NCBI GenBank assembly: GCA_016712675.1
Contig: JADJQR010000001.1
Span: 2,063,737 to 2,127,736 of the forward strand
Reading direction: 5' to 3'
DNA length: 64,000 nt
Source: a bacterium
GTDB lineage: Bacteria; Krumholzibacteriota; Krumholzibacteriia; LZORAL124-64-63
This document shows positions 1 through 49,622 of this stretch, piece after piece. The stretch's first letter is position 1; each line of letters opens with the position of its first letter. The translations under genes were made by a program, and so were the position numbers. The notes beneath the pieces were generated by a model that worked only from the letters and a program-made list of their open reading frames with translations, had not been told where the DNA came from and did no database searches.

Positions 1-57
1 CAGGCTGAGCGTGCGCCGCGGTGCATTGAGGCTCCCCTCAAGTCAAAGGTTTGTCCC

Positions 58-2960
58 CCATGGACATGGATGATCGCGAACTGCTGGCGGAACTCGTCGT
101 CGAGTCGCAGGATCACCTCACGGCGATGGAACCGGACCTGCTGGCGCTCGAAAAGGGCGCCTCGCCGGACGAGACCATGGAACTCGTCAACCGGATCTTC
201 CGCGGTATCCACAGCATCAAGGGCGGTTGCGGGTTCCTCGGGATCACGTCCGTGCAGGAACTGGCGCACGCGATGGAGAGCGTCCTGATGAAGGTCCGCT
301 CGCGTCGCCTGGAGGTCACCCGGCCGATGGTCGACGTGCTGCTGGACGGCACGGACCGGGTCCGGACGATGCTGGCCGACGTGGCCAACGCCGGGACGGT
401 GGACGCGACGGACGTCTACCGCCGGCTGGACCCGTTCCTGGCGGAAGGCGAAGCGGCGGTGGTCCCGGCCGCAACCGAACCGGTGGCGGCGAGCGACGCG
501 GCACCGACCGGCACGCGCCGCAGCGGCTACATCCCCCTGACTACGCCGAACCGGGCGGACGAGCCCGAGATCGCACCGGCAGTGCCGGATCCGGAGCTGT
601 CGGCCGCCGCCGCGGTGCGCGAGATGCCGGAGCCGGCCGAACCGGCGGACGCGGCGGGAGTGGTCGCGAGCCATCGCGGCGCGGCCCCGGACGTGCTGCG
701 CGTCAAGGTGGACCTGCTCAACCGCCTGATGAACCTGGCCGGCGAACTCGTGCTGGCGCGCAACCAGCTGCTGCAGGCACTGGACCGCCGGTTCAGCGAG
801 ACCGCTGCCGGCGAGGCGGTCTTCGCCGCCACCAGGTCGGCTGTCGCCGAGGCGCAGCAGCGCCTGCGCGAGGTCGTCGACGGCAGCACGGGACGATCGA
901 CGGGTGACGAGGCGAAGGAGCGCTCCGAACAGATCGAGCGCGTGCTGGCGGAACTCGCCAGCCACATCGCCCAGGCCCTGCCCGGCCGCCTGAGCGAGCT
1001 GCCGGGCATGAACGCCACGATGGTCAATCTCGACGCGGTCACGACCAACCTGCAAGAGAACATCATGCGCACGCGCATGCAGTCGATCGAGACCCTTTTC
1101 GGCAAGCTGCCGCGCCAGATCCGCCAGTTGTCACGCCAGACCGGCAAGGAGATCGAGCTGGTGGTGACCGGCAACGAGGTCGAGCTGGACAAGTCGATCG
1201 TCGAGGCGCTTTCGGATCCGCTCAATCACCTGATCCGCAATTCGCTGGACCACGGCTTCGAGGCGCCGCTGGCGCGCGAGGCGGTGGGCAAGCCGCGCTC
1301 CGGGCGCCTGGATGTCAGGGCGTTCCATGAGGGCGGCCAGGTCAACATCGAGATCCAGGACGACGGGCGCGGCATCGATCCCGCCCGGATCCGGGCCAAG
1401 GCGGTCGAGAAGGGCATCATCACGGCGGAGCAGGCCGCGCGGCTGGATGACCGCGAGGCCGTGCTGCTGGTCTTCGCGCCGGGGTTCTCCACCGCCGAGC
1501 GCGTGAGCGACATCTCGGGGCGCGGCGTCGGCATGGACGTGGTGCGGACGAACATCGAGAGCCTCGGCGGCAGCATCGAGATCGACAGTCAGGTCGGCAT
1601 CGGCACCCGGACGCGCCTGAAGCTGCCGCTCACCCTCGCGATCATCCCCTCCCTGCTGGTGCGCGCCTGCGGACGGCGCTTCGCGGTGCCGCAGGTGAGC
1701 CTGGACGAGCTTGTGCGGCTGCGGCGCGGTCGCGACGACCAGCGCATCGAGCAGGTGCAGGGCGCCGAGGTCATGCGCCTGCGCGGTCACCTGCTGCCGC
1801 TGGTGCGCCTCTCCAGCCTGCTGGGCATCGAGGAGGCCGGCGCCACCGAGCGCCAGGCAACCTACGTCGCGGTGCTCAAGACGGGCGAGAACCGCTACGG
1901 GCTGATCGTGGACGAGGTGCTGGACAGCGAGGAGATCGTCGTCAAGCAGCTGCCCGGTTCGCTGAAGGATGCCCGCTGCTACGCCGGCGCCACGATCATG
2001 GGTGACGGCTCGGTGGCGATGATTCTCGACGTGCTGGGCATTGCCGACATCGCCGGCCTCCGGTTCACGGAGATCGCGCGGGCGGCCCAGGCGGACGACA
2101 GCACCGAGAGCTACCTGGACCGCACGGAGAGCCAGACGCTGCTCCTGTTCCGCAACGCGCCGGGCGGGGAGCGCTTCGCGCTGAACCTGGCGCTGATCTC
2201 GCGCATCGAGAAGGTCGCCGCCGGCGACATCCAGCGGGTCGGCAGCAAGGAGTACCTGCGCTTCCAGGGCGGCTCGCTGCGCCTGCTGCGCCTGCACGAC
2301 CACCTGCCGGTGCAGGCGCCGGTCGACGAGGCGGCGGAGCTCTACGTGATCATCCCGAAGCTGGTCAAACATCCGCTCGGGATCATCGCGCGCGAATGCG
2401 AGGACGTCGTCTCGGCGCGCGTGGAAGTGGACCGGGACAACGTGCGCGGCACGGGCATCCTCGGCTCGGGGATGATCAACGGGGACCTGACGGTCTTCCT
2501 GGACATTTACGGCCTCTTCGAGGCGGCCGAACCGGAGATCTACCGCCAGGGGGACCGGCGCGTGGCCCGGGTGGAGCAGGCGCGCATCCTGCTGGCCGAA
2601 GACACGTCGTTCTTCCGCGCGGTCGAGAAGAAGTACATCGAGGCCATGGGTGCCACGGTGACGGCCGTCAAGGATGGCCGCGAGGCCTGGCGCCTTCTGA
2701 GCGAGTCACCCGAGTCGTTCGACATGGTGGTCACCGATATCGAGATGCCGCTGATGGATGGCCTGGAACTGACCCGTCACATCCGCGGATCGGCGCGGCA
2801 TGCGGCGATCCCGGTCGTGGCGCTGACTTCGCTGGGATCGGATGAGAACCGCGAGGCGGGACTGGCGGCGGGCGTCAACGCCTACGAGGTCAAGCTGGAC
2901 AAGGACAGGCTGGCGGCGACCATCCGCCAGGTCCTGGAGGAGGTGCACGCACATGCGTGA
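58..2960 (+). CDS. cheA: CheA-type histidine kinase with fused C-terminal receiver (FrzE/WspE-like CheA-CheY hybrid)
   Basis: N-terminal Hpt motif (RIFRGIHSIKGGCGFLG), Pro/Ala-rich linker, HATPase_c G-boxes (DDGRGID, GRGVGMDVV), CheW-like domain, then a receiver domain (ILLAEDTSFF...FDMVVTDIEMPLMDGLEL). The track ORF starts at 51 (TTG); ATG at 58 with AAAGG 9 nt upstream. Confidence 0.9.
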
Positions 2961-3459
2961 CCAGCAGTACGTCTCGTTCGTCCTGGATCGTCACCTGCTG
3001 GGGATCGACATCCTGCTCGTGCGGGAGATCATCCGCAACGTCGACTTCACGCCCGTGGCCAAGGCGCCCCCGGCCGTGCGGGGGCTGCTCAACCTGCGGG
3101 GCCAGATCATCACCGTGCTGGACCTGGGTCCGGCGCTGGGCCTGCCGCTGCGGGAGATCGGGCCCGACTCGCGCTGCCTGATCCTGAAGTCGCCGGCCGA
3201 GACAGCCCCGCTGCTGGCGGCCGGCCTGGTCGATGAGGAACCGGTCGGCGAAGCGGTCGGGCTGCTGGTGGACGCCATCAGCGACGTCGTTCGCCCCGGC
3301 GAACAGGGCGTCGACGCGCCGCCGGCCAACGCCAACGGCATCGACACCGACCACCTGCGGGGCGTGGTGAGGCTGGAGGATCGGTTGCTGCTGATCCTGG
3401 GCCTGCGGAAGCTGATCGAGGAAGGGCTGGGACAGCGTGGGCAGGTCGCCCGCGTCTGA
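2953..3459 (+). CDS. cheW: CheW coupling protein
   Basis: The 168-aa protein opening MRDQQYVSFVLDRHLLGIDILLVREII is a CheW-like domain. Its ATG at 2953 overlaps the cheA stop by 8 nt. Confidence 0.85.
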   Translation: MRDQQYVSFVLDRHLLGIDILLVREIIRNVDFTPVAKAPPAVRGLLNLRGQIITVLDLGPALGLPLREIGPDSRCLILKSPAETAPLLAAGLVDEEPVGEAVGLLVDAISDVVRPGEQGVDAPPANANGIDTDHLRGVVRLEDRLLLILGLRKLIEEGLGQRGQVARV

Positions 3460-3504
3460 GCGTGGCTCCGCCGGGCACCGGCAAAGCAACGGAGAGGACG
3501 AGTC

Positions 3505-5277
3505 ATGATCCTGTCGAGGTTGTCGATCCGCGCGAAGGTGACGCTCGCGAGCGTGCTGCTGCCCACCGTGCTGTTCACCGTCCTGACGGTCGTCTGGGCG
3601 CGTGACGAGCGCCGCTCGGTGAACGAGCAGTACGTGGACAAGGCGCGCGCGGTGGTCCACGGCGCCGAAGGTGCCCGCGAGTACATGGAGGACAGCTGGC
3701 GCAGCGGCGTGTTCGACACCGCCATGATGCGGCGCTGGAGCGAGACCGGGCAGCTGGAACTCGCGATCAACGCGGTGCCGATCGTGGCCGGCTGGCGCAC
3801 CGCCATGGCCAACGCGGAGGACGGCGACTACGCGTTCAAGGTGCCCAAGTTCTCGCCGCGCAACCCGGACAACGAGCCGGACGAGACCGAGGCGCGCGCC
3901 CTGCGGCTGCTCGAGAAGGAACGCCTGCCGGAGTACTGGGAGATCGACCACGAGACGAACAACCTGCGCTTCTTCCGGCCGATCATCCTGACCGAGAACT
4001 GCCTGCTCTGCCACGGCGACCCGGGCACCAGCCGCCAGTTGTGGGGAACCAGCGACGGCACGGACATCACCGGCGCGCGGATGGAAGGCTGGAAGGTCGG
4101 CGAGGTGCACGGGGCCTTCGAGGTCCTGCAGTCGTTGGACAGCGCGGACGCCGCCTTCCGGGCGGGCCTGACGCGGATGATCGTCCTCGCGGTGGTGGGC
4201 CTGGCGGCGCTGGCCCTCCTGCTCCAGTTCACGCTGCAGCGCATCCTGATCCGGCCCCTGCAGGAGAGCGTCATGTTCGCCGACAAGCTGGCCGCCGGCG
4301 ATCTCGGCACGCGCGTGGCCCATGCCGAACGGCAGGACGAGATCGGGCGGCTCAGCCGTTCGCTCAACGCGATGGCCGAGAGCCTGCGCACGCTGATCTC
4401 CGACATGAAGTCCGGCAGCCGGACGCTCAAGACGTCCAGCGGCAGCCTGGGCACGCAGAGCGACAAGCTGGCCTCCGACTCGGAGTCGATGACCGACGTG
4501 GCCAATACGGTCAGTTCCGCCGGCGAGGAGCTCTCCTCGAGCATCGCGGGCATCGCCAGCAGCGCCGAGGACATGTCGAACATGCTCAATACGGTCGCCG
4601 CGAGCATCGAGGAGATGACAGCCTCGATCACCGAGGTGGCCAAGAACAGCGTGCGCAGCGCCGACATCGCCGACAACGCGAACCGTCAGAGCAAGTCCAC
4701 GGTCGAGATCATGGGGCAACTCAAGGCAGCGAGCGAGAAGATCGGCCGCGTCCTGGAGGTCATCTCCGACATCGCGGACCAGACGAACCTGCTGGCCCTC
4801 AACGCGACGATCGAGGCCGCCAGCGCTGGCGATGCCGGCAAGGGTTTCGCGGTCGTGGCCAACGAGGTGAAGGAACTCGCCCGCCAGACCACTCAGGCGA
4901 CCGAGGAGATCAATCGCGAGATCGACGACATGCGGCAGCGCACGACCGCGGCCGTGACGGCCGTTGAGAACATCAGCCGCGTGATCGGCGAGGTGAACGA
5001 GATCTCGACCTCGATCGCCGGTGCCGTCGAGGAGCAGTCCGCGACGCTGAACGAGATCGCCAAGAGCGGCGGCGTGGCCAACCAGGCGGCGCAGGAGATC
5101 TCGCGCCGGGTGAACGAGGGCGCCAAGGGCACGCAGGAGATCGCGCGGACGATCCAGGCCGTGCGCGAGGGCGTGCACGAGACCGACAAGGGGATCCAGG
5201 CCACGCGGCGCAACGCGGCGGAGCTGGCGGAACTGTCCGATCGCATGGACGAACTTGTGTCGCGCTTCGCCCTCTAG
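3505..5277 (+). CDS. Methyl-accepting chemotaxis protein with haem-c (CXXCH) periplasmic sensor domain
   Basis: TM1 at residues 15-33, a ~170-aa periplasmic domain carrying [11 protein letters not shown] (C166/C169/H170, nt 4000-4014), TM2, HAMP, then the MCP signalling domain ([31 protein letters not shown]). The sensor resembles Tll0287/DUF3365-type haem-c PAS-like sensors. Confidence 0.85.
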
Positions 5278-5304
5278 GGCGGACGCGGGGGAAGGGACAC
5301 CCGG

Positions 5305-6393
5305 ATGGGACTGCGGGCACTGGTGATCGAGGACAGCCTCGTCTTCCAGAAGATCATGGCCGAGGTGCTGCGGGGGCTGCCCGGCGTCGAGACCGTCGAC
5401 GTGGCCGGGCGGGGCGACGACGGCCTGGCGGCAGCGGGCCGTCACCAGCCGGACGTGGTCTTCCTCGACCTGCACCTGCCTGACATGGACGGGCTGGACG
5501 TCCTGGATCGGCTCAAGGCGCGGTGGCCCCGCCTGAAGGTGGTCGTCGTCAGCGGCCTGAGCATCGAGGGCGCCGACCTGACCATTGCCGCGCTGTCGCG
5601 CGGCGCCCAGCAATTCGTGCGCAAGCCGGCCGGGAGCGGGTTCCAGCAGTCGGTGGCCATGCTGAGGGCGGAGCTCGAGCCGGTGGTGGGCACCGTGCGG
5701 GCGCAGCTGGCCCCGGCGCCGGTCCCGCCGCGTCCCGTCGTCCCGTCGCCGGCCTCGTCGCCGCGGGCGAACGCCGCCGGCAGGCCCCACGGGGCGGGGT
5801 TCTGGGTGACGGCGATCGCCGTCTCGACCGGTGGTCCGGAAGCCCTGTCGCGCCTGGTGCCGCGGCTGCCGGCCGGCTATCCGATGCCGGTGGTCATCGT
5901 GCAGCACATGCCACCGCTGTTCACGCTATCGCTGGCGCGCAGTCTCGATGCCAAGTCGGCGTTGACGGTCGTCGAAGCCGCCGATGGCGATGTCCTGAAG
6001 CCCGGCACCGTGTACCTGGCCCCGGGCGGGCGGCACCTGACGGTCGTGCGCGAAGGCGCGCAGTCCGTCTGCCGCCTGAACGACGACCCGCCCGAGCAGA
6101 GCGTGCGGCCAGCGGCCGACGTGCTGTTCCGCTCGCTGGCGCGCATCGGCGGGACGCAGCGCGTGCTGGCGGTCGTGATGACGGGCATGGGCGAGGACGG
6201 GCTGGCCGGCGTGCGCCAGTTGAAGGCGGCCGGTGGGTGGTGCCTGACGCAAGCGGAAACGACGTGCGTCGTGTACGGGATGCCGCGGGCGATCGACACC
6301 GCCGGCCTGAACGACGAGTCGGTGGCGCTGGACGACCTGGCCGGGAGGCTGGCGAGCCTGGCGAACTGCGGGCGGGCCCCGGCCGGTGTCTGA
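5305..6393 (+). CDS. cheB: CheB protein-glutamate methylesterase with N-terminal receiver
   Basis: Receiver domain (LVIEDSLVF...DVVFLDLHLPDMDGL) followed by the CheB methylesterase domain (AIAVSTGGPEAL...VIVQHMP...GGRHL). Confidence 0.9.
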   Translation: MGLRALVIEDSLVFQKIMAEVLRGLPGVETVDVAGRGDDGLAAAGRHQPDVVFLDLHLPDMDGLDVLDRLKARWPRLKVVVVSGLSIEGADLTIAALSRGAQQFVRKPAGSGFQQSVAMLRAELEPVVGTVRAQLAPAPVPPRPVVPSPASSPRANAAGRPHGAGFWVTAIAVSTGGPEALSRLVPRLPAGYPMPVVIVQHMPPLFTLSLARSLDAKSALTVVEAADGDVLKPGTVYLAPGGRHLTVVREGAQSVCRLNDDPPEQSVRPAADVLFRSLARIGGTQRVLAVVMTGMGEDGLAGVRQLKAAGGWCLTQAETTCVVYGMPRAIDTAGLNDESVALDDLAGRLASLANCGRAPAGV

Positions 6394-6453
6394 GCCCGGG
6401 CGGCGGGACCGGCGGATTGACGGGCAGGGGCGGGTGCGGGAACCTGGAGGACC

Positions 6454-7494
6454 ATGGCAACGACGATCACCACGCGCGAGTTCGACCGGATCCGGGAGTT
6501 CCTGCAGCGCGAGACCTCCATCAGCCTGACCGACGACAAGGCCTACCTCGTCGAGACGCGCCTCTCGGAGATCATGAAGGCGCACGGGCTGCCCGATTTC
6601 GGGGCGCTGCTGTCGGCGCTCCAGGCCGGCCAGCCGCGCGGCCTGCGGGACCTGGTCATCGACGCGATGACCACCAACGAGACGCTCTGGTTCCGTGACG
6701 GCGCCCCGTTCGACGCCTTCCGGGAGCACCTGCTGCCGGCCTGGGCCGGCGAGATCGCGGCCGGCAAGCGGCAGAAGATCCGCATCTGGTCGGCGGCCTG
6801 CTCGACCGGGCAGGAGCCGTACTCGCTGGCGATGGTCTACCATGAGGTCGCGCGCCGCCTGCCCGCGCTCCGGCCGGAGCACCTGGACATCCTGGCGACC
6901 GACCTGTCCGACTCGGTCCTGGCGACCGCCAAGGCGGGCATCTACGGCGGCATGGCGATCCAGCGCGGCCTGCCCGCCGAGTACCTCGACCGCTGGTTCG
7001 TGCCGGCGGGGGACGGTCGTCACGAGGTGCGGCGCGAGATCCGGGACCGCGTGGTCTTCCGCAAGTTCAACCTGCGCGACTCGTTCATCATGATGGGGTC
7101 GTTCGACATCATCCTGACGCGCTACGTGCTCATCTATTTCCAGGATGACTTCAAGCGCGAGGTGCTGCGCAAGGCGCACGGGGCGCTGGACAAGGGCGGG
7201 GTGCTGTTCCTGGGCGCGAGCGAGAGCCTCCCGGACGGGATGCCGGGCTTCGCCGTGGTCCGCCGCGGCCGCACGACGTGGTACCAGAAGGCGGGCAACC
7301 CGACCGCCGCGCCGTCGGCGGCGGCGGCCCCGGGGGTAGCCGCACCTCGACCAGCGTCCAGACCAGTCACCTCGCCGCCGGCCGGCTCGGCGCCGCCAGC
7401 ATCGCCGGCGAATGCGGCGGGAGCCACCGCGGCGGCCGACCTCAATGAAGTGCTCCAGAAGCTTCGCGATCTTAACGCAAAATACGACAAATAG
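6454..7494 (+). CDS. cheR: CheR chemotaxis methyltransferase with a Pro/Ala-rich C-terminal tail
   Basis: CheR N-domain (REFDRIREFLQRETSISLTDDKAYLVETRL) and SAM-MTase domain (IWSAACSTGQEPYSLAM). The last ~70 aa are low complexity (PTAAPSAAAAPGVAAP...) and end in a short helix. Confidence 0.9.
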   Translation: MATTITTREFDRIREFLQRETSISLTDDKAYLVETRLSEIMKAHGLPDFGALLSALQAGQPRGLRDLVIDAMTTNETLWFRDGAPFDAFREHLLPAWAGEIAAGKRQKIRIWSAACSTGQEPYSLAMVYHEVARRLPALRPEHLDILATDLSDSVLATAKAGIYGGMAIQRGLPAEYLDRWFVPAGDGRHEVRREIRDRVVFRKFNLRDSFIMMGSFDIILTRYVLIYFQDDFKREVLRKAHGALDKGGVLFLGASESLPDGMPGFAVVRRGRTTWYQKAGNPTAAPSAAAAPGVAAPRPASRPVTSPPAGSAPPASPANAAGATAAADLNEVLQKLRDLNAKYDK

Positions 7495-8117: not shown

Positions 8118-9758
<1,641 letters not shown>

Positions 9759-9783
9759 TCCTGCGCCGGACCCCGCGTCCCCG

Positions 9784-9815
9784 AGGCCCCTGCCGGTGCG
9801 AACCGGCAGGGGCCT
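9784..9815 (+). terminator. rho-independent-type hairpin after groEL
   Basis: Perfect 13-bp inverted repeat AGGCCCCTGCCGG-tgcgaa-CCGGCAGGGGCCT, followed by a cttttg stretch. Confidence 0.6.
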
Positions 9816-9871
9816 TCGCGTGCGGCGGGACCGCTTTTGACGTCAGGGTCGCCGGGGGCTACACTGCGCGC

Positions 9872-11017
9872 ATGCACGTGCTCCACCTCGGCAAGTACTA
9901 CGCGCCGTACCGCGGCGGCATGGAGACCATCCTGCAGGAGATGGCCGAGGGCCTGCTCGACGAGGGCTGCGACGTCACGCTGGTCACTTCGGCGACCGGT
10001 GTCCACGCGCTCACCGAGACGATCCGCGGCCCGCACACGGGGCGCGGCGGTCGGCTGTTGCGCGTCGCGCGCCTGGGTCTCGTCAATTCGCAGCCTGTCA
10101 ACCCGGGTCTGGTGTCGGCACTGCGCCGGGAACTGGCTCGGGGCGGCGCGGACCTGCTCCACCTGCACCTGCCCAACCCGCTGGCGGCCGCCGCGTGCCT
10201 GGCGCTGCGGCGGGATCCGTCCGCGCGGCGCGTGCCGCTGGCTGTGTGGTACCACGCGGACATCACGCGGCAGCGCCTGGGGGCGCGGATGGTCACGCCG
10301 ATCGTGCGCGCCTGCCTGCGCGAGGCGGCCGGCATCTGCGTCTCGTCCGCGGCGTTGCGGGACCACTCGCCGGTGCTGGCGCCCTTCCGCGCGAAGGTGA
10401 CGGTCGTGCCGTTCGGCATCGCGCCGGCGCCGTGGCGCAGCGTGGAGCCCCGACCTGACGGCCCGTTCGTCTTCGTGGGCCGACTGGTGGGCTACAAGGG
10501 CGTCGACGTGCTGCTGCAGGCGCTGGCCGACGTGCCGGGCGCGCAGCTGGAGATCGTCGGTGACGGGCCGCTGGCGCCGGGCCTGCGCGACGAAGCGGTG
10601 CGCCTGGGGCTGGGCGGGCGCGTGGCGTTCCTGGGCGAGATGGACGGCGCTGGCATCGCGGGCCGCCTGGCGCGGGCGCGGGCGCTGGTCCTGCCGAGCG
10701 TCGACCGCAGCGAGGCGTTCGGGCTGGTGCAACTGGAGGCGATGGCCGCCGGCGTGGCGGTGATCTGCACCGACCTGCCGACGGGTGTGGCCGAGGTCGG
10801 CGTGCCGCATCGAACCTGCCTGCGCGTGCCGCCCGGCGATCCCGCCGCCCTCGGCGGCGCGCTGGCCACGCTGCTGGCCGACGGGGAGCTGGCCGGTCGC
10901 CTGGGCCGGGCAGGGCGGGCGCGCTACGACGAACTGTTCACGCGGGAGGCCATGGTGGGCCGACTCCTGGACTGGTACGGCACCGTGGCGGCGTCCGCCG
11001 CCGACCGGAGGGACTGA
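9872..11017 (+). CDS. glycosyltransferase family 1 (GT4-type)
   Basis: GT1 C-terminal domain signatures (FVGRLVGYKGVD, EAFGLVQLEAMAAGVAVI). Its stop overlaps the next start (TGATG). Confidence 0.8.
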   Translation: MHVLHLGKYYAPYRGGMETILQEMAEGLLDEGCDVTLVTSATGVHALTETIRGPHTGRGGRLLRVARLGLVNSQPVNPGLVSALRRELARGGADLLHLHLPNPLAAAACLALRRDPSARRVPLAVWYHADITRQRLGARMVTPIVRACLREAAGICVSSAALRDHSPVLAPFRAKVTVVPFGIAPAPWRSVEPRPDGPFVFVGRLVGYKGVDVLLQALADVPGAQLEIVGDGPLAPGLRDEAVRLGLGGRVAFLGEMDGAGIAGRLARARALVLPSVDRSEAFGLVQLEAMAAGVAVICTDLPTGVAEVGVPHRTCLRVPPGDPAALGGALATLLADGELAGRLGRAGRARYDELFTREAMVGRLLDWYGTVAASAADRRD

Positions 11018-11784
11018 TGGGTTTCGCGTTCATCGAGCCCTGGCACCTGTTCCTGCCCCGGCAGGCGGGCCATGTCGTGGCCATCTGCGGGTCCGGCGGC
11101 AAGACCTCGCTCCTGGGCGAGATTGCGCGCGTGTGGGCCGGCGACGGTCTGCCGGTGGTGGCGACCACGACCACGCGCACGGGCCCGGTGCCCGGCTTCT
11201 TCGGTGCGGGCCCCGGCGACGATGGCGACCGGCCGGTCGCCGGCAACCTGCCGTTCCGGCATGCGGGGACGCGACCGGACGGCAAGTGGCAGGGCCTGAC
11301 GGCGGCGGACGCCGACGCGCTGGAGGGCCTGGTGGTGGTGGAGGTGGACGGCGCCGCCGGGCTTCCCTTCAAGTACTATCGCGCGGGCGAGCCCGTGTGG
11401 CCGTCGCGCACCTCGCTGGCGATGGTGGTCATGGGTGTCGGGGGCGTGGGCGAGCCGGCTGGCAGCGTGGTGCACCGCCTCGGACGGTCCGGGGTGATCG
11501 ACCCGGTCGGGGTCGGTCCCGGCGACATCTGGCAATGGGACCACGCCCACGCCCTGCTGACGGCTCCCGGCGGCTACCTGGCACAGGTGCCGGCCGACGT
11601 GCCCGTCGTGCTGGTGCTGGCGGGACTCGAGCAGCAGCCGGACAGTGTCGGCCTGTTCGAATTCACCGGGCGCGCGATGGATCACCCGCGCGTGCCGCTG
11701 GTCGTGTTCTGCAGCCGCGGCGAGGAGGGCCTGGTCCTGCGGGCAGCCTGCCGGGAGGAATCCGGCGATGATGACGACGGCTGA
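11017..11784 (+). CDS. yqeC: selenium-dependent hydroxylase accessory protein, YqeC family
   Basis: HVVAICGSGGKTSLLGEIA...VVATTTTRTGP matches the YqeC (TIGR03172-type) P-loop protein. Confidence 0.7.
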   Translation: MGFAFIEPWHLFLPRQAGHVVAICGSGGKTSLLGEIARVWAGDGLPVVATTTTRTGPVPGFFGAGPGDDGDRPVAGNLPFRHAGTRPDGKWQGLTAADADALEGLVVVEVDGAAGLPFKYYRAGEPVWPSRTSLAMVVMGVGGVGEPAGSVVHRLGRSGVIDPVGVGPGDIWQWDHAHALLTAPGGYLAQVPADVPVVLVLAGLEQQPDSVGLFEFTGRAMDHPRVPLVVFCSRGEEGLVLRAACREESGDDDDG

Positions 11785-12433
11785 GCCGTCGGGCCCGGGC
11801 CGCGGCGATGTCGTGCTCGTGCTCTGCCGCGGGGCGAGCCGCAGGTTCGGCGCGCCCAAGGCGCTGGCGACCGTCGGGACCGACCCGCGACCACTGCTGG
11901 CGCGCGTGGCAGCCACGTACGCGCGCACGGATCTGGGCCTGCTCCTGGTGGTGACCACTGCGGACCAGGTGCAGGGCTGTTGCGCCTGCCTGGACGGGGC
12001 GGACGCACCGGCGTTCGCGGTGGTGGCCGGGACTGCGGGCGGCGACACGGCGCTGACGATGGCCCTGGCCTCGGCCTGGCTGCAGCAGCAGGGCCAAGCG
12101 GTCACCCGCGTGTGGGCCCACCCGGTGGACCTGCCCCGCGTGCGTCACCGCACGCTGGTGCAGCTGGCGCGCGTGGCTGCGTCCGTCCCCGCGCTGCCGG
12201 TGCGGCCGGCCTGGGGCGGGCAGCCGGGCCACCCGGTGGTCGTGCCGCACGAACTGCTGGCGCGGCTGGCGCCGGCCGCGTCGGCGAGCGACGTGTCGTG
12301 GCGCGCGTTCTATGCGGGCGAAGTGGCGGCGGGCCGTGCGCACGCCGCCGTCGAGGTGCCGGTGGCCGACCCGGGCGTGGTGCTGGACCACGACGATCCG
12401 GGTGACCCGGCCTGGCCGGACGGGGAGGGCTGA
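11768..12433 (+). CDS. MobA/MocA-like nucleotidyltransferase (YgfJ-family molybdenum hydroxylase accessory protein)
   Basis: VVLVLCRGASRRFGAPKALA is the MobA-like NTP-transferase motif. The start ATGATG at 11768 overlaps the yqeC end. Confidence 0.65.
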   Translation: MMTTAEPSGPGRGDVVLVLCRGASRRFGAPKALATVGTDPRPLLARVAATYARTDLGLLLVVTTADQVQGCCACLDGADAPAFAVVAGTAGGDTALTMALASAWLQQQGQAVTRVWAHPVDLPRVRHRTLVQLARVAASVPALPVRPAWGGQPGHPVVVPHELLARLAPAASASDVSWRAFYAGEVAAGRAHAAVEVPVADPGVVLDHDDPGDPAWPDGEG

Positions 12434-12436
12434 GCG

Positions 12437-13303
12437 ATGGCGGACGATCCCTGGCGCACGCCCTGCGAGGGCGATGTGCTGCTGGAACTGGCGGCCATGG
12501 TGCGCGAGCAGCGGGCGGGCGTGCTGGCCACCGTGATCGGGGCCGAACGGTCGACCCCGCGCCAGCCGGGCGCGAAGATGATCATCCACGCCGACGGCCA
12601 CCTGACCGGAAGCGTGGGGGGCGGCCGGGCCGAGGCACACGTGGTGGCGGAAGCGGCCCAGGTTGCTGCCGGCGGTGCCTGCCGCACCGTGTCGATCGAC
12701 CTGGACGGCGATCTGGGCGTGTGCGGCGGCCGGATGTCCGTCTTCCTCGAACCGGTGCTGCGGGCGGTCCCGTTCGTGGTCATCGGGTGCGGACACGTCG
12801 GCCGCGCCCTGGCGACGGTGGGGCGCACGCTGCCGTTCCGCTTCCTGCTGGTGGACGACCGCGCCGACATGCTGGTCGGCCTGCCCGCCGGCGGGAGCCT
12901 GCAGGCGGTGGCCTGCGGGCCCGGCGAACTGGCGGGCGTGCTCCAGGGCGCGGCGGGCGGGGCCGTGCTGGTGGCCAGCCGCGGCCACGCGTGCGACGCG
13001 GACTATCTCGAGGCCCTGCTGCGGGCCGAGGCCGCCCTGTCGCGACCGTTCGCCTTCATCGGCCTGCTCGGCAGCCGCGCCAAGTCGGCGCGCATCCTGG
13101 CCGAACTGGCGGACCGCGGCATCGGGGCCGAGGCGCTGGCCCGTGTGCGGGCGCCGGTCGGGCTGGATCTCGGGGACGAGACGCCGGCCGAGATCGCCCT
13201 CAGCGTGCTGGCCGAAGCGCTGGCCGTGCTGCGCGGGCGCGAGTTGCTGCGCGATGGCGACGGCCGGGAGCTGGGCATCCGCCTGCGGAGGCGGCGGACG
13301 TGA
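12437..13303 (+). CDS. xdhC: XdhC/CoxI-family molybdenum cofactor insertion protein
   Basis: XdhC_CoxI N-domain (VLATVIGAERSTPRQPGAKMIIHADGHLTGSVGGG) and Rossmann domain (FVVIGCGHVGRALA). Confidence 0.75.
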   Translation: MADDPWRTPCEGDVLLELAAMVREQRAGVLATVIGAERSTPRQPGAKMIIHADGHLTGSVGGGRAEAHVVAEAAQVAAGGACRTVSIDLDGDLGVCGGRMSVFLEPVLRAVPFVVIGCGHVGRALATVGRTLPFRFLLVDDRADMLVGLPAGGSLQAVACGPGELAGVLQGAAGGAVLVASRGHACDADYLEALLRAEAALSRPFAFIGLLGSRAKSARILAELADRGIGAEALARVRAPVGLDLGDETPAEIALSVLAEALAVLRGRELLRDGDGRELGIRLRRRRT

Positions 13304-14115
13304 GCAGCGGCGGTGGCATCTGGATCCAGGGCGCGGGCGAGCTGGGTTCGGCGGTAGCCGTGTGCCTGGTGCGCGCGGGCTACCGCGTGGTGCTCGCCGA
13401 GACAGCGCTGCCGATGGCGGTCCGGCGCCTGGTGTGCTTCGCCGAGGCGGTCTACGCCGGCCAGGTGGAGGTGGCGGGCATCGCCGGCCACCTGCGGGAC
13501 GGACACCAGGCGGGTTTCGGCGAGGGCGTCGTGGACATCATCGTCGATCCGGCCGGCGTGCAGCTGGTGCGCCTGCGTCCGCTCGCCTACGTCGACGCGC
13601 GCCTGGCCAAGCGTCCGCCGACGTCCCCTGACCCGGGCCCGATCCCGCGCATCGGTCTGGGGCCGGGGTTCACCTGCGGCGTGGATGCGGACCTGATCGT
13701 GGAGACCCATCGCGAGGCCGGGCCCGGGCGCGTGATCGAGCACGGCGCGGCGGCGCCCGACACGGGCGTGCCCGGGGTGGTGGGCGGGCAGGCGCTGGCC
13801 CGGCTGCTGCGCGCGCCGGCAGCCGGGCGGCTGCGCCCGCGGTGCGCCATCGGCGACCTGGTCACCCAGGGCCAGGTCGTGGGCGAGGTCGGGGGACTGC
13901 CGGTTGTCGCCGGGCTGGACGGGTTGCTGAGGGGCCTGGTGCACGAACGCGCGGAACTTCACGCGGGCGTCAAGGTTGGAGATGTCGATCCCCGCGGCGC
14001 CAGCATCGACCCGCGCGCCGTCTCGGACAAGGGGTGGGCCGTTGGCGATGGTGTGGTCGAGGCCCTGGCCCGGTTGGGTGTCAGCGCGGGCAGATGGGGC
14101 GGGGTCGCCGATTGA
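13300..14115 (+). CDS. yqeB: YqeB/EF2563-family selenium-dependent molybdenum hydroxylase system protein
   Basis: GTG start overlaps the xdhC stop (GTGA). The motifs IWIQGAGELGSAVAVCLVRAGYRVV...IGLGPGF...RVIEHGAAAPDTGVPG...RLLRAP...DVDPRG...SDKGWAVGDGVVEAL are characteristic of TIGR03309. Confidence 0.75.
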   Translation: MSSGGGIWIQGAGELGSAVAVCLVRAGYRVVLAETALPMAVRRLVCFAEAVYAGQVEVAGIAGHLRDGHQAGFGEGVVDIIVDPAGVQLVRLRPLAYVDARLAKRPPTSPDPGPIPRIGLGPGFTCGVDADLIVETHREAGPGRVIEHGAAAPDTGVPGVVGGQALARLLRAPAAGRLRPRCAIGDLVTQGQVVGEVGGLPVVAGLDGLLRGLVHERAELHAGVKVGDVDPRGASIDPRAVSDKGWAVGDGVVEALARLGVSAGRWGGVAD

Positions 14116-14233
14116 CAGAGAGGGGCCCCGGCAATTATGTAAGGGGGGGCTCCGGCTGCTCGACCGGGCCTTTCGTTTTCTGGGGGCGTCGGGTGCGACG
14201 CCGCAGCAGCTTTCCGTGGCTGGAGGTAAGCAC

Positions 14234-15421
14234 GTGATCGGATTGGGCATGAACCACGTGGGCAGGCGCGCATGGGTCGCGGCTCTCGGTCTGGCGGCGT
14301 TGTTGGGCGCCCGGGATGCCGCAGCGGAATGCCAGCCGGGGCAGATGCAGGAAGCCAACCTGCAGTACGTCGAGGCCAAGAAGGCACTCGACGCCCAGAA
14401 CTGGGATCAGGCGCTGCCGAGCCTTCAGTCCATCATCCAGACGTGCCCCGAGCATGTCGAGGCGATGCGGGGCATCGGCATCGCGCAGGTCGGCAAGGAG
14501 CAGTACGAACTGGCGGCGAGGGCTTTCCAGCGGGTCATCGAATTGCGCGGCGAGGACGTGCAGGCCGGGGACTTTGACAACCTCGCCCGGGCTTATGTTC
14601 GCCAGAAGCTCTACAAAGAAGCGCGCGCCGAGTACATGAAGGCCGAGCAGCTGGCGCCGGACGACTGCGGCCTGCTGTTCAACCTGGCGTCGATCCATGA
14701 TGCGGTCGGCTTCTCGACGCAGGCGGTCGACGTCTGTCAGCACCTGCTCGACCTCGACGCCGAATGCCCGAAGGCCCAGGAGAAGGTGCTGGTGCTGATC
14801 GCCAAGGCGGCCGGTCGCGCCAGCGAGCAGCAGAAGCGCGCTGGCAACAACGAGCGCGCCCAGTACTATATGGAGCTGTCGCAGCAGTACGGTGGCCAAG
14901 CCGGCGGTTCGACGACCAGCGACGTGGCCAAGCAGAAGATGAAGGCCGGCGACTACGCCGGCGCGGCGGCGCTCTACGAGAGCATGCTGGCCAAGAACGC
15001 GGAACTGACGAATGCTTGGCTGAACCTGGCCCGCGCCAAGGACCAGGCCGGGGACAAGCCGGGCAGCGTCGAGGCCTACGCGAAGTACCTTGCGCTCAAG
15101 CCGACCGACACCACGGAATGGGGCGCCATGCTGCAGGTGATGGTGGAGGCCGGTCGGTGCGGCGATGCGGCCTCCCAGGCCACGCGGGCCTATGACGAGC
15201 ACCGGGCGAAGGGCCACGAGGCGGTCGCGCCGATCCTGTTCTCGTGGGGCCTGGCGTTGGAATGCCAGAAGGAATACGATGCCGCGCGCACCAAGTTCGC
15301 GCAGTGCGCCGAGAGCGGCAGCGCGCGCTATTCGGCGGCGGCCCGGCAGCAGGTCGAGCGCATGGAAGGCCTCAAGGCCGTGGCCGAGGCGGAGCGGAAG
15401 AAGGCCGCCGGCGGCCGCTGA
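14234..15421 (+). CDS. secreted TPR-repeat protein
   Basis: GGAGG 6 nt upstream of the GTG start, an N-terminal signal peptide (AALGLAALLGA), and several TPR-like helical repeats. Confidence 0.65.
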   Translation: MIGLGMNHVGRRAWVAALGLAALLGARDAAAECQPGQMQEANLQYVEAKKALDAQNWDQALPSLQSIIQTCPEHVEAMRGIGIAQVGKEQYELAARAFQRVIELRGEDVQAGDFDNLARAYVRQKLYKEARAEYMKAEQLAPDDCGLLFNLASIHDAVGFSTQAVDVCQHLLDLDAECPKAQEKVLVLIAKAAGRASEQQKRAGNNERAQYYMELSQQYGGQAGGSTTSDVAKQKMKAGDYAGAAALYESMLAKNAELTNAWLNLARAKDQAGDKPGSVEAYAKYLALKPTDTTEWGAMLQVMVEAGRCGDAASQATRAYDEHRAKGHEAVAPILFSWGLALECQKEYDAARTKFAQCAESGSARYSAAARQQVERMEGLKAVAEAERKKAAGGR

Positions 15422-15522: not shown

Positions 15523-16677
15523 GTGGGACGCCTGCAGAAGCTGCCGCCATACCTGTTCGCCGCACTGGATGCGGCCAAGCGTCGGGCCCGCGAATCCGGA
15601 GCTTCGGTCATCGACCTGGGCATCGGCGATCCGGATCGGCCGACGCCCGCGGAGTTGATCCGCGTCATGACCGAAGCGATCGCCGACCCGGCTTGCCATC
15701 GGTACCCGGCGCAACGCGGCGATGCGGACCTCAAACGGGCCATCGCGGGCTGGTTGCGGCGGCGCCACGGCGTGGAAGTGGATCCGTCCACGCAGGTGCT
15801 GGTGCTGATCGGCAGCAAGGAAGGTCTGGCGCACCTGCCGGTCACCTGCGTGCAGGAGGGCGACAACACGCTGGTGCCCGACATCGGCTACCCCGTCTAT
15901 GCGCAGGCGACGATCCTGGCCGGCGGCACTCCGCGCACCTTCCGGTTGCGGGCCGCGAACGGCTTCCTGCCGGACCTGGACGAGGTGGCGGCGCTGATGG
16001 ACGACCGCACGCGCCTCCTCTTCCTGAACTACCCCAACAACCCGACCGGGGCAACCGCGGACCAGGGGTTCTGGCGTCGCGCCGCGGACCTCTGCGCGCG
16101 GCGGGGCGTGACGCTGGTCAATGATGCGGCGTACCTGGAGATGTCGCTGGATGGGCTGCCGCAGCCGTGCCTGCTGGGCACTGCCGACCCTGCGCGCGAA
16201 CGTGTGATCGAGTTGCACAGCCTCTCGAAGATGTTCAACATGACCGGCTGGCGCGTCGCCTTCGCGGTCGGGCATCCCGAGCTGGTCGAGGCACTCGGCC
16301 GGGTGAAGGACACGATGGACAGCGGCGTCTTCACAGCCATTCAGCGCACGGCGGCCTACGCCCTGGGTCCGGATTTCGACCGGCTGCTGGCCGGAGTCGC
16401 CGAGCCGTATGCCGCGCGTCGCGAGAAGCTGGTACCCAGGCTGGCTGCAGCCGGGTACGAGGTGTTTCCTTCCCGGGCGACGTTTTATGTCTGGTGCCGA
16501 ATCCCGGGCAACGAGGAGGCGGCCGCCTTCTGCCAGCGTGCGCTGTCCGAGATCGGTGTCGTGGTCACGCCCGGCACGGGTTTCGGCAGCGGGGGCGAAG
16601 GCTGGTTCCGCCTCAGCCTGACGGCGTCCGAGGTCGACCTCGAGGAGGGCGCACGGCGCCTGGCGGGCTGGACATGA
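15523..16677 (+). CDS. dapL: LL-diaminopimelate aminotransferase (class I aminotransferase)
   Basis: KLPPYLFAALDAAKRRARESGASVIDLGIGDPD...NYPNNPTGA; the PLP-binding lysine context (SLSKMFNMTGWRVAF) is present. Confidence 0.75.
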   Translation: MGRLQKLPPYLFAALDAAKRRARESGASVIDLGIGDPDRPTPAELIRVMTEAIADPACHRYPAQRGDADLKRAIAGWLRRRHGVEVDPSTQVLVLIGSKEGLAHLPVTCVQEGDNTLVPDIGYPVYAQATILAGGTPRTFRLRAANGFLPDLDEVAALMDDRTRLLFLNYPNNPTGATADQGFWRRAADLCARRGVTLVNDAAYLEMSLDGLPQPCLLGTADPARERVIELHSLSKMFNMTGWRVAFAVGHPELVEALGRVKDTMDSGVFTAIQRTAAYALGPDFDRLLAGVAEPYAARREKLVPRLAAAGYEVFPSRATFYVWCRIPGNEEAAAFCQRALSEIGVVVTPGTGFGSGGEGWFRLSLTASEVDLEEGARRLAGWT

Positions 16678-17069
16678 TCGACCGCCTGCGTCTGGTCGGC
16701 ATCGATGTCTACGCGTTCCACGGCGCCCACCCGGCCGAGCGCGAACTGGGCCAGAGGTTCAGCGTCGACGTCGAACTGGCTGCCGACCTGGAGGCGGCGG
16801 CCGTACGCGACGACCTGGCGCTCGGCATCGACTACGCGGCGGTGCATGCGAAGGTCGTGGAGACGGCCACCGGTTGCCGCTGCCTGCTGATCGAGGCGCT
16901 GGCGGCCCGGCTGTGTCGGGAGCTGCTGCTCGCGTTTCCCGCAGCCGCGGTGCAGGTGACGGTGCGCAAGACGCAGCCGCCGATCGAGGGCTTCTACGGA
17001 CACGCCGAGGTCACGCTGTCGCGCGACCGCGCCTGGCTGTTGCGCGCCGAGGGCGGGGCCCCGCGATGA
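16674..17069 (+). CDS. folB: dihydroneopterin aldolase
   Basis: MIDRLRLVGIDVYAFHGAHPAERELGQRFSVDVEL; the start overlaps the dapL stop (ATGA). Confidence 0.8.
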   Translation: MIDRLRLVGIDVYAFHGAHPAERELGQRFSVDVELAADLEAAAVRDDLALGIDYAAVHAKVVETATGCRCLLIEALAARLCRELLLAFPAAAVQVTVRKTQPPIEGFYGHAEVTLSRDRAWLLRAEGGAPR

Positions 17070-17653
17070 ACCGGCCTGGCGTGGTGGCCTATCTAGGACT
17101 GGGAAGCAACCAGGGCGACCGCCTGGCTGAGCTGCGGCACGCGGTGGCCGGTCTCTCGGGCCTGCCGGGCGTGGCGATCACGGCGGTCAGCGGCGTCTGG
17201 GAAACCGAACACGTGGGGGAGGGCTGCCAGGACCCGTACCTGAACGCCTGCGTCGAAGTGCGGACCGCTCTGGCCCCGCTGCAGCTGCTGGACGCCCTGA
17301 AGAGGCTCGAAGCCGCTGCCGGTCGCAGCCTGGACGGGCACGGGCAGCCACGGCCGATCGACCTGGACATTCTGCTCTATGGGGACCTGGTCTGCGCAGG
17401 CCCGCGCCTGCGGGTGCCGCACCCGGAACTGGCGAGGCGGGCGTTCGTCCTGGAGCCGTTGGCCCAGATCGCGGCCTCGGTGGTTTGCCCCGATTCGGGG
17501 GAGACAATCGGCGACTCGTGTGCGAAAATAAGGCGTAAAGGTGGGCCGTGGGTGCGGCCGTACTGCGGCGGGGGCCTGCGGGATCCGGGCCCGGCATGCG
17601 AACAAGGAGGACCGGGGTGCTGCCCTGGCGCTACATCGTCGTCGAAGGCGTGA
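17066..17653 (+). CDS. folK: 2-amino-4-hydroxy-6-hydroxymethyldihydropteridine pyrophosphokinase
   Basis: VVAYLGLGSNQGDR...PRPIDLDILLYGD...PHPELARRAFVL. Confidence 0.8.
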   Translation: MNRPGVVAYLGLGSNQGDRLAELRHAVAGLSGLPGVAITAVSGVWETEHVGEGCQDPYLNACVEVRTALAPLQLLDALKRLEAAAGRSLDGHGQPRPIDLDILLYGDLVCAGPRLRVPHPELARRAFVLEPLAQIAASVVCPDSGETIGDSCAKIRRKGGPWVRPYCGGGLRDPGPACEQGGPGCCPGATSSSKA

Positions 17654-28647: not shown

Positions 28648-28845
28648 CCCGATGATCACGGCTGCGTGACATCGTAAGGGGATCATTATTTTTGCTGTTG
28701 ACAACAACCCCGGCGGCGCTAGGGTCGACGGTGGTGGCGTACGTGTTCCCGAGGCAGGGCTCGCGCACGACGCGCCGTGGCGCTGCCCGGGCTGGAGGCC
28801 CGTGCACGTGGGAGGACCCGCGATCCATGGTCGAAAGGATTCGGC

Positions 28846-29919
28846 ATGCGCGTCGTAGCCTTGGCCAACCAGAAAGGTGGTTGCGGAAAGACCACCACCG
28901 CGACCAACCTCGCCGCCGCCCTGGCCCAACTCGGACACAAGGTCCTGCTGCTCGACAACGACCCGCAGGGGCACGCGACGCTGTCCTTCGGCTTCCGTGA
29001 GCGCGACTTCACGCTCAGCACCTACGACCTGTTCCTCACCACCGACATCCTGGTCGAGGACGCGTTTCTCGAGATCGAGCCGGGGTTGCACCTGGTGCCA
29101 GCGGGCGTGGAGCTGAGCGCGGTCGAGATGGCGCTGGCCCGGGAGCCCGAGCGTGACGTGCGCCTGCGCGACAACCTGCGGCGCAGCGCGCTGCCATACG
29201 ACTACATCCTGATCGACTGCCCGCCCAGTGTCGGCCTGCTCACGTTCAACGCGCTGCTGGCCAGTGGCGAGGTCATCATCCCGGTCGACCCGAGCTGCTA
29301 CGGGCTGCAGGCCGTGCGCAAGATGCGCGAGACGCTGACGATGCTGCGCCAGAAGAAGGGGCACGACGTCGTTCCGCGGGTCCTGATGTCGGGCTTCGAC
29401 ACCCGGCCGTTGTTCGTGCGGAAGATCATGGAGGAACTGGCGGAGCTGTACCCTGACGACCTCATGGAGACGATCATTCACCACACGGTGCGCTTCCGCG
29501 AGGCTGCGGGAGCGGGGCTACCTGTTGCCCGGCTCGATCCCGATTCGCGCGGCGCCCATGATTTCCGGATGCTCGCGCGCGAGGTAGCGGGCAAGGAGTC
29601 TCTCGTGGCGGTGCCGGCACTGGACCACTGGACGGCCCTGCTGCATGGCCCGCAGGTGACGAAGGCGGGCGTTCGCTTCGAGGCGGATTTCCCCAGGGCG
29701 CGCTCGGTGCGTTTGACCGGGACATTCTGCAACTGGTCGGCCAAGGGTCTGGCGCTGGCCAAGCGCGAGGATGGTATCTGGGAGGCCCATCTGCAGTTGG
29801 AGAACGGCCGGCACCAGTACCGCTTCATCGTCGATGGCGCCTGGCTGCCCGATCCGCACAACACCGAAACGGTAGCCAACGAATTCGGCGGGGCCAACAG
29901 CCTGCTGCTCGTGCCTTGA
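28846..29919 (+). CDS. ParA/Soj-family P-loop ATPase fused to a C-terminal CBM48 (AMPK-beta glycogen-binding-like) domain
   Basis: Deviant Walker A VVALANQKGGCGKTTTATNLAAALA and LLLDNDPQGHAT. The C-terminal ~90 aa read VRLTGTFCNWSAKGLALAKREDGIWEAHLQLENGRHQYRFIVDGAWLPDPHNTETVANEFGGANSLLLV, which is the CBM48 / AMPK1_CBM pattern. Confidence 0.8.
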   Translation: MRVVALANQKGGCGKTTTATNLAAALAQLGHKVLLLDNDPQGHATLSFGFRERDFTLSTYDLFLTTDILVEDAFLEIEPGLHLVPAGVELSAVEMALAREPERDVRLRDNLRRSALPYDYILIDCPPSVGLLTFNALLASGEVIIPVDPSCYGLQAVRKMRETLTMLRQKKGHDVVPRVLMSGFDTRPLFVRKIMEELAELYPDDLMETIIHHTVRFREAAGAGLPVARLDPDSRGAHDFRMLAREVAGKESLVAVPALDHWTALLHGPQVTKAGVRFEADFPRARSVRLTGTFCNWSAKGLALAKREDGIWEAHLQLENGRHQYRFIVDGAWLPDPHNTETVANEFGGANSLLLVP

Positions 29920-35378: not shown

Positions 35379-35390
35379 ACCGATAGGCGA

Positions 35391-35435
35391 CGGACCGACA
35401 GACGATGGACCGACAAGCAAGGGACCGACAAGGCG
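35391..35435 (+). repeat. three direct repeats of GGACCGACA with 15-bp period
   Basis: GGACCGACAgacgat / GGACCGACAagcaag / GGACCGACAaggcgt between the methyltransferase stop and the likely start of the downstream orphan. Confidence 0.7.
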
Positions 35436-35467
35436 TGAAGCGACGAGTCCGGACGGGGAGGGGCGGC

Positions 35468-43749: not shown

Positions 43750-43784
43750 TGGTCATCCGCGGGCTGATCCCGTATATTCAGGTC

Positions 43785-47237: not shown

Positions 47238-49622
<2,385 letters not shown>

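Follow-up and report, generated by a model that had tools for sequence, protein, structure and literature searches.

The subject of this report is a five-gene cluster (positions 9872-14115, forward strand) in a 64,000-nucleotide stretch of a Krumholzibacteriota genome (GenBank assembly GCA_016712675.1, contig JADJQR010000001.1), hereafter called the window. Judged from its sequence, the cluster is one operon with a predicted leaderless transcript and is characteristic of the phylum. A glycosyltransferase of CAZy family 4 (GT4) comes first and is followed by yqeC, a gene for a MobA/MocA-like nucleotidyltransferase (NTP transferase), xdhC and yqeB, the latter four being relatives of genes for the maturation of selenium-dependent molybdenum hydroxylases (SDMHs). 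On balance, we favour reading the cluster as a stand-alone maturation operon, co-transcribed with the GT4 gene, for one or more hydroxylases of the xanthine oxidase family that would be encoded elsewhere in the genome. An earlier note on this DNA had stressed that no hydroxylase or selD lies nearby; this absence is ordinary, and the truly unexplained part is the coupling of the cassette to the GT4 gene. That coupling is found throughout the phylum and is a conserved, previously undescribed feature.

An important first step is to establish which families the maturation genes belong to, using hidden Markov model profiles from NCBIfam and Pfam. The earlier note had proposed a complete SDMH set with three marker families, of which two are borne out. 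YqeC (255 aa, 11017-11784) scores 90.7 bits on TIGR03172 (cut-off 73.05) and 76 bits on PF19842, and it carries the Walker A motif GSGGKTS at residues 24-30. YqeB (271 aa, GTG start, 13300-14115) reaches 228.7 bits on TIGR03309 (cut-off 220) over profile positions 2-254 of 256, contains all three of the motifs IGLGPGF, DTGVPG and DVDPRG, and matches MBK8165997.1, annotated by NCBI as an EF2563-family SDMH system protein, with 100% identity. Distant orthologues pass the cut-offs too (one tested for YqeC and two for YqeB), with L088 and L039 at 260 bits on TIGR03309. YqeB and YqeC thus occur together, in the same operon, as the selenium-cofactor trait (SelD, YqeB and YqeC; Zhang 2008, Peng 2016) calls for. 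XdhC (288 aa, 12437-13303) is also as the earlier note had it, with 70 bits on PF02625 (XdhC_CoxI), 110 bits on PF13478 (XdhC_C) and the conserved cysteine of the LGVCGGR motif in place, although it stays below the NCBIfam equivalogs TIGR02964 (117.9 against 161.6 bits) and NF045664 (XdhC_rel_AOR; 160 against 350 bits). The AlphaFold2 model of YqeB has a predicted local distance difference test score (pLDDT) of 87.5 and no full-length counterpart in the PDB; only local matches of about 65-75 residues to biotinyl/lipoyl-type, barrel-like structures were returned, which echo the similarity to AccB noted by Johnstone & Self. The YqeB family is still without a solved structure.

The third marker, a YgfJ/MocA protein, does not stand. 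The NTP transferase (221 aa, 11768-12433) scores 25.7 bits on TIGR03310 (MocA/YgfJ), far below the cut-off of 186.45. Its best NCBIfam match is the DVU_1551 family (51 against 315 bits), and it is recognised only by the superfamily domain PF12804 (NTP_transf_3; 52 bits). On TIGR03310 the transferases of its relatives score 50.9-54.7 bits, and outgroup copies score 150-204, including one from a classical locus at 203.7. Within the phylum the motifs [AC]RG.S.R.G.PK, GG.TA.T, HPVD[LMV]P and GHP are conserved, and the classical copies have AAGES.RM and [KE]GM.TS where the phylum has [AC]RG and GG.TA.T; the catalytic-type G, R, K and D and the GHP positions are retained. The AAG-type and [KE]GM.TS-type regions are, we presume, those that set guanine versus cytosine specificity in MobA/MocA. 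The gene is also the fastest-evolving of the operon, with a ratio of nonsynonymous to synonymous substitution rates (dN/dS) of 0.37-0.47. On these profile matches, we class the protein as a divergent, distant relative of MobA/MocA and not as a bona fide MocA/YgfJ.

The arrangement of the genes and their signals points to a single transcription unit. The stop codon of the GT4 gene (381 aa, 9872-11017) shares one base with the start of yqeC, in the TGATG that the earlier note had pointed out. The overlap between yqeC and the NTP transferase gene is 17 nt and that between xdhC and yqeB is 4 nt (GTGA), but 3 nt lie between the NTP transferase gene and xdhC; the maturation genes are therefore consecutive without all overlapping as had been described. 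Every internal gene has a GGAGG-type ribosome-binding site, that of yqeC being situated within the 3' end of the GT4 gene, and none is found at GT4 itself. A sigma-70-type promoter (TTGACG-17 nt-TACACT, 9837..9865, forward strand) ends 6 nt ahead of the GT4 ATG and is the sole promoter-like site in 9600-14400, where shuffled sequences average 0.0. Because the -10 element ends so close to the ATG and no Shine-Dalgarno sequence is present, the GT4 mRNA is predicted to be leaderless. The promoter elements TTTGAC and CTAnAnT are invariant and at a fixed distance from the GT4 ATG in 11 species in which the surrounding spacer has diverged. Upstream lies groEL (8118-9758). Folding the RNA of 9759-9871 gives a G+C-rich hairpin (9783..9815, forward strand; 15-bp stem, no T run) at which groESL transcription probably ends, and a counterpart was found in 5 of 10 aligned relatives, all of them of high G+C (L001, L005, L008-L010). 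At the other end, a terminator scan found a terminator-like hairpin with a T-rich tail (14151..14185, forward strand) that closes the operon.

Comparative genomics can reveal how far this arrangement extends. About 60 loci of the phylum were examined, reached through YqeB (L001-L040, from an alignment scan of species-representative genomes), through GT4 (L087 and L088) or through a metagenome scan anchored on the gene for a tetratricopeptide repeat (TPR) protein that follows the operon. In every locus reached by YqeB or GT4 that has enough sequence, the order is groESL, GT4, yqeC, NTP transferase, xdhC, yqeB, TPR, aminotransferase, folB and folK, and in the phylum loci the operon invariably lies between groESL and the TPR gene. 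Median spacers are -1 nt from GT4 to yqeC and -4 nt from yqeC to the NTP transferase gene, from there to xdhC and from xdhC to yqeB, compared with 143 nt (range 91-231 nt, 39 loci) from yqeB to the TPR gene. The GT4 stop and yqeC start overlap or lie no more than 10 nt apart in 31 of 39 loci, which upholds the overlap as a conserved trait of the relatives. The nearest relatives have YqeB proteins of 51-73% identity, and their neighbouring TPR and aminotransferase proteins are up to 89-94% identical. In the window the TPR gene occupies 14249-15421; its product was earlier called a lipoprotein, and it does have TPR domains and a signal peptide but no canonical lipobox (…AAAEC). The dapL label given to the gene beyond it is not supported, the DapL model giving 443 against a cut-off of 507.

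Purifying selection acts on all five operon genes (dN/dS 0.19-0.47), and the four maturation genes are less constrained than the housekeeping neighbours. This weaker constraint, together with the loss of parts of the cassette in several related lineages (see below), would be expected if the four maturation genes were decaying relics with no current function, beside the GT4 gene by historical accident. We find this barely credible, as the open reading frames (ORFs), motifs and Shine-Dalgarno sites of the window are intact, selection is evident from the same dN/dS values, and about 50 loci, with 42-76% G+C and YqeB identities of 51-85%, retain all of the genes.

The roles of the gene products in the favoured reading are taken from the literature on their families. 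The MobA/MocA-like transferase would add a nucleotide to Mo-molybdopterin with the P-loop protein YqeC as its partner; XdhC would hold the resulting cofactor and insert it into the apo-enzyme; and YqeB would help to install the labile selenium ligand, drawn from selenophosphate made by SelD. The client hydroxylase or hydroxylases and selD would reside elsewhere in the 4.7 Mb genome, and the GT4 gene would be co-transcribed and translationally coupled to yqeC. The activity of GT4 would be independent of XdhC and YqeB, as GT4 persists in lineages that have lost them. Gene fusions can be used to suggest which of these proteins act together. Single ORFs of 451-469 aa that join YqeC to a MocA-like transferase, in the order seen in the operon, occur in four outgroup loci from Anaerolineaceae, Peptococcaceae, Syntrophomonadaceae and Bacillota metagenome-assembled genomes (MAGs) (L067:8125-9480, L068:8572-9972, L071:10810-12189 and L077:9078-10487), and Haft & Self reported that XdhC-YqeB fusions are frequent in other taxa. 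Taken with the gene order, these fusions suggest that YqeC works with the transferase, and XdhC with YqeB, as two functional pairs.

A natural question is where the client enzyme is encoded. The earlier statement that the 64 kb hold neither hydroxylase nor selD is confirmed: Pfam scans of about 50 ORFs revealed no molybdenum hydroxylase subunit, SelD/AIRS protein or gene for the biosynthesis of the molybdenum cofactor (Moco) in the window, tblastn with outgroup hydroxylase subunits and SelD gave no match there, and six-frame profile searches were likewise empty. The SelD query, an E. coli sequence, scores 619 bits on NF002098. Neither a Moco riboswitch nor any tRNA, tRNA-Sec included, was found in the window. 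The accompanying claim, that described systems lie beside a hydroxylase and selD, was overstated. Among 46 outgroup YqeB loci (Eisenbacteria, Bacillota, Chloroflexota, Desulfobacterota and others), a hydroxylase FAD subunit is present within about 10 kb in 11, a molybdenum-binding subunit in 6 and selD in 1, all of these being lower bounds as many of the loci are short contigs. Where a neighbourhood is present, it is of the classical purine-catabolic kind, with adenine deaminase, YgeW-like carbamoyltransferases, carbamate kinase, amidohydrolases and a Bmp transporter; the loci with hydroxylase subunits also hold purine-catabolism genes, in agreement with the published selenium-dependent purine pathway. 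In genomes that additionally carry the selenocysteine or selenouridine trait, Haft & Self found selD to be remote from TIGR03309 genes. The one case examined genetically is that of Clostridioides difficile, in which pyrimidine genes flank yqeB, away from yqeC, selD and the hydroxylases, and yqeB is nevertheless required for selenium-dependent growth on xanthine and urate (Johnstone & Self 2024); dispersal is therefore compatible with function. Stand-alone xdhC-mocA operons have been described as well (reviewed by Neumann & Leimkuhler). Given how common such separation is in the literature and in the outgroup loci, a remote target is the ordinary expectation and not an anomaly.

Alternatively, the phylum may lack selD altogether, with YqeB and YqeC helping to insert a sulfur ligand, or the cofactor generally, into an ordinary (sulfur-type) or as yet undescribed molybdoenzyme. 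No selD was found in any examined locus, the window's YqeB and YqeC score barely above their cut-offs, and Peng et al. reported YqeB/YqeC homologues also in genomes without a complete selenium trait, in which selenium-independent roles are possible. However, the original survey found TIGR03309 solely in selD-positive genomes, with selD typically distant, and the distant orthologues L088 and L039 score 260 bits on TIGR03309. We regard a selenium-free cassette as improbable. The literature on the phylum gives little guidance here: we found no pairing of Krumholzibacter* with xanthine dehydrogenase, and the phylum descriptions examined do not mention selenium, molybdenum, xanthine or purines. Counts of the Prokka label 'hcrA' in a supplement (1 in a 71% G+C MAG, 0 in BB18 and BB39, which carry the cassette) are too unspecific and were not used.

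Variants of the operon that have lost genes can be used to see which parts depend on one another. The TPR-anchored scan yielded 37 further loci, 18 of them with enough upstream sequence. Twelve of these have the full operon and 6 have been shortened from the 3' end, in at least 4 separate lineages as judged by GT4 and aminotransferase similarity. Upstream of the TPR gene, L100 and L102 encode GT4, a YqeC-like protein that lacks the P-loop (YqeC'), NTP transferase and XdhC but no YqeB; L121 and L125 (L120 is similar) encode GT4, YqeC' and NTP transferase; L109 has GT4 and YqeC'; and L124 has GT4 and YqeC. GT4 is present in all 18 loci and a YqeC-like ORF in all 17 inspected, that of L091 running on to 422 aa. 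Among 34 distinct YqeC sequences from YqeB-positive loci, every one has an intact Walker A motif, whereas 5 of the 6 loci that lack YqeB have lost it (Fisher's exact test, p = 9e-6, uncorrected for phylogeny; three independent losses). This covariation ties the YqeC NTPase to YqeB, as the definition of the selenium-cofactor trait implies. The YqeC' proteins no longer match TIGR03172, yet they remain under purifying selection, with dN/dS of 0.38-0.39 compared with 0.31-0.35 for GT4 in the same genome pairs. They also retain, at least in part, a motif (FxF[ILV][ED]PWHxFLPR..GHV) that lies at the N terminus of YqeC, ahead of the region modelled by TIGR03172, in 45 loci of the Krumholzibacteriota type and in none of the 46 outgroup loci.

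Several of these observations weigh against a maturation operon with a remote client. In 42 phylum loci (L001-L040, L087 and L088; 8-10 kb to either side, searched with tblastn and profiles), no client hydroxylase, selD or Moco-biosynthesis gene was found, and the MoCoBD, FAD_binding_5 and 2Fe-2S domains that mark a classical SDMH locus are absent from the vicinity there as in the window. At 25.7-54.7 bits, the transferases of the phylum are so far from MocA that their nucleotide, and even their substrate, is uncertain. The reading also gives no account of why a P-loop-less YqeC-like protein should be kept beside GT4, at a dN/dS of about 0.38, where YqeB is gone, nor of why GT4 and yqeC are translationally coupled across the phylum.

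A rival reading is a separate functional module made up of GT4, the YqeC-like protein and the divergent nucleotidyltransferase, with XdhC and YqeB as a dispensable add-on. Such a module could combine nucleotide activation with glycosyl transfer to a small molecule, possibly a pterin or the cofactor itself, and the operon would make or use a modified cofactor or metabolite instead of simply serving a remote hydroxylase. The retention of GT4 and a YqeC-like ORF in loci without YqeB, XdhC and/or the transferase is in keeping with this, as are the selection on YqeC' (similar to that on GT4) despite its departure from TIGR03172, the phylum-specific N-terminal motif, the tight GT4-yqeC junction and the transferase motifs unlike those of classical copies. 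Furthermore, the nearest characterised GT4 enzymes (BshA, MshA and PimA) use small-molecule or lipid-headgroup acceptors, pterin glucosyltransferases likewise belong to GT4, and folB and folK lie a few genes downstream. On the other side, the retention order (GT4 > YqeC > NTP transferase > XdhC > YqeB) equals the gene order, a pattern that would equally arise from simple deletions at the 3' end if the first gene is essential and therefore spared; the transferase still matches models of the MobA/MocA type only; and GT4 is found next to YqeB or YqeC in 0 of the 46 outgroup loci. Nor is there a GT4-YqeC fusion, and this GT4 is no nearer to pterin glycosyltransferases than to dozens of other GT4 enzymes. 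We consider a separate module unlikely, though a credible contender.

The boldest reading has a stable unit of GT4 and a YqeC-like adaptor, usually joined by the transferase, whose target would be the pterin cofactor or the donor of its selenium or sulfur. We think this decidedly improbable. Were it true, the unit might carry out pterin glycosylation or an unusual nucleotide attachment, or might provide a sugar-bound chalcogen carrier as with SenB; the phylum would then hold a chemically new variant of the Moco pathway, in which YqeC bridges nucleotide-sugar and Moco chemistry.

The sole candidate for a GT4-YqeC fusion, P0208 (548 aa), was rejected. A frameshift makes it read on into the yqeC region, which gives an arginine-rich, out-of-frame tail, and it is an artefact of assembly or annotation. 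The genes folB and folK, of the pterin branch of folate synthesis, lie at 16125-17653 of the window, two to three genes downstream of the operon, and are found there in all relatives; their closeness may be a coincidence within a conserved housekeeping block.

The glycosyltransferase itself had been labelled GT1 in the earlier note, but the 'group 1' of the Pfam name corresponds to CAZy GT4. Its Pfam scores are 72 bits for the N-terminal Glyco_transf_4 domain and 101 bits for the C-terminal Glycos_transf_1 domain, and its AlphaFold2 model (pLDDT 91.6) has a standard GT-B fold, which together place it among the predicted retaining, GT-B-fold enzymes of GT4. The top fold matches are MshA, the sucrose-phosphate synthase-like Tll1590, GlgM and BshA, the template modelling score (TM-score) being 0.77-0.81 for BshA, MshA and Tll1590, and the best full-length profile matches in the PDB are BshA-type enzymes of Bacillus anthracis and B. 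subtilis and PimA. No NCBIfam equivalog is reached, BshA (TIGR03999) scoring 74.1 against 273.7 bits and MshA (TIGR03449) 51.5 against 462.5. Tetrahydrobiopterin glucosyltransferases appear lower in the match list, amid many other GT4 enzymes, so that an identity as a pterin glycosyltransferase was not adopted, the resemblance being no greater than to those others. A SenB-like selenosugar synthase was also considered; it is unsupported, as the SenB model (TIGR04348, cut-off 300) matches only the C-terminal half at 20.2 bits (E = 2.6e-4), and SenB is not among the best 60 PDB profile matches or the best 50 fold matches. Several orthologues carry the JGI label 'rhamnosyl/mannosyltransferase', and the dN/dS of GT4 is 0.26-0.27.

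Comparison with known systems helps to place the operon. The ygeW-ygfM region of Escherichia coli, with yqeB-yqeC-ygfJ(mocA), and EF2563/EF2564/EF2569 of Enterococcus faecalis (Haft & Self 2008) have YqeB, YqeC, a MobA-like transferase and an XdhC-type domain in common with the window, and SDMH maturation is the predicted role in all three. In contrast to these sets, XdhC and YqeB are here encoded by separate, overlapping genes without fusion, the transferase falls below the TIGR03310 cut-off, the 64 kb contain no hydroxylase, purine-catabolic gene or selD, and a GT4 gene heads the operon. The C. difficile genes (yqeB and yqeC-mocA) are likewise apart from selD, and yqeB is also apart from the hydroxylase; in that organism yqeB and yqeC lie apart from each other, whereas here all four genes are translationally coupled. 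Deletion of C. difficile yqeC alone had no obvious phenotype, while in Krumholzibacteriota an intact YqeC Walker A motif goes with the presence of YqeB. In the xdhC-mocA operons of the Oligotropha carboxidovorans chromosome and of Arthrobacter nicotinovorans plasmid pAO1, too, the structural genes are distant from those for a chaperone and a cytidylyltransferase, which may serve several enzymes; these operons lack YqeB, YqeC and a glycosyltransferase. The Desulfovibrio-type DVU_1551 NTP transferase and the XdhC maturation factor for aldehyde oxidoreductase provide the best curated models, of which the window proteins are not members; the DVU_1551 model is 359 residues long compared with 221 for the window transferase. 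As for GT4, it has the GT-B fold and nucleotide-sugar-binding motifs in common with BshA, MshA, PimA, the pteridine glycosyltransferases (BGluT/PGT) and the Se-glycosyltransferase SenB, and its profile matches to BshA-type and PimA structures are full-length, but no equivalog cut-off is reached.

For the roles of YqeB and YqeC in selenium biology, the variants of this phylum offer a natural experiment. The Walker A pattern, the YqeC-MocA fusions and the coupling of XdhC with YqeB suggest partners: YqeC would belong to the nucleotidyltransferase step, and its NTPase would act with YqeB. A functional GT4-YqeC coupling would point to as yet undescribed cofactor chemistry; otherwise the locus would simply be the form that a known maturation system takes in Krumholzibacteriota.

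Care must be taken in interpreting the base composition of the cassette. Its G+C is 75-77%, compared with 66-70% elsewhere, and the excess falls at codon positions 1 and 2, a consequence of proteins rich in Ala, Gly, Arg and Pro. The G+C at third codon positions (GC3), 0.89-0.93, is the same as in the neighbouring genes and the rest of the genome, so the operon appears native, with no sign of recent transfer, and horizontal transfer of the cassette was rejected. At 76% G+C the antisense frames also look coding by GC3. The long antisense ORFs are artefacts of high G+C, since they are gone in relatives with 42-53% G+C; GC3 alone was insufficient, and the gene calls inside the cassette were settled by homology and by these low-G+C relatives.

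Some of the outgroup loci are worth describing individually. In the Eisenbacteria-type loci L041, L042 and L044-L046, YqeB lies in a purine-catabolic cluster with a shared FAD subunit, carbamate kinase, adenine deaminase and Bmp. The order in L044 is NTP transferase, XdhC, YqeB, FAD subunit, two YgeW-like carbamoyltransferases, carbamate kinase, adenine deaminase, a major facilitator superfamily transporter and Bmp, with an aminotransferase directly upstream.

The remainder of the window is varied. Its Pfam content includes chemotaxis proteins, groESL, folate and pantothenate genes, LexA, Hsp20, Lon, a C25 peptidase, glycosyltransferases of the envelope and lipopolysaccharide (LPS), acyl-CoA dehydrogenase, EF-P and BCCP. 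Directly 5' of groESL (30-7494) are CheA with a C-terminal receiver, a CheW-like ORF (assigned from the Pfam CheW match in the syntenic L005), a methyl-accepting chemotaxis protein with a Tll0287-like sensor, CheB and CheR. The neighbour on this side varies in relatives, being UvrB-QRPTase-BPL-PanK or a C25 peptidase. Two ORFs, at 35387-36766 (459 aa) and 43659-45353 (564 aa), have coding-type composition and no Pfam match. A large region for LPS-core or envelope glycosylation (49541-54776) contains four successive GT9 (heptosyltransferase-like) genes interrupted by a HAD-type phosphatase, followed by DUF3108, PMT_2 and Bac_transf. The protein encoded at 37083-41966 (1,627 aa) has a C25 (gingipain-type) peptidase domain, FG-GAP repeats and a C-terminal FlgD_ig domain, and similar C25 proteins flank groESL in the relatives L006 and L088. 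Finally, the gene at 28723-29919 encodes a ParA/MinD-type ATPase fused to a C-terminal glycogen-binding module (AMPK1_CBM/CBM48), an unusual combination.

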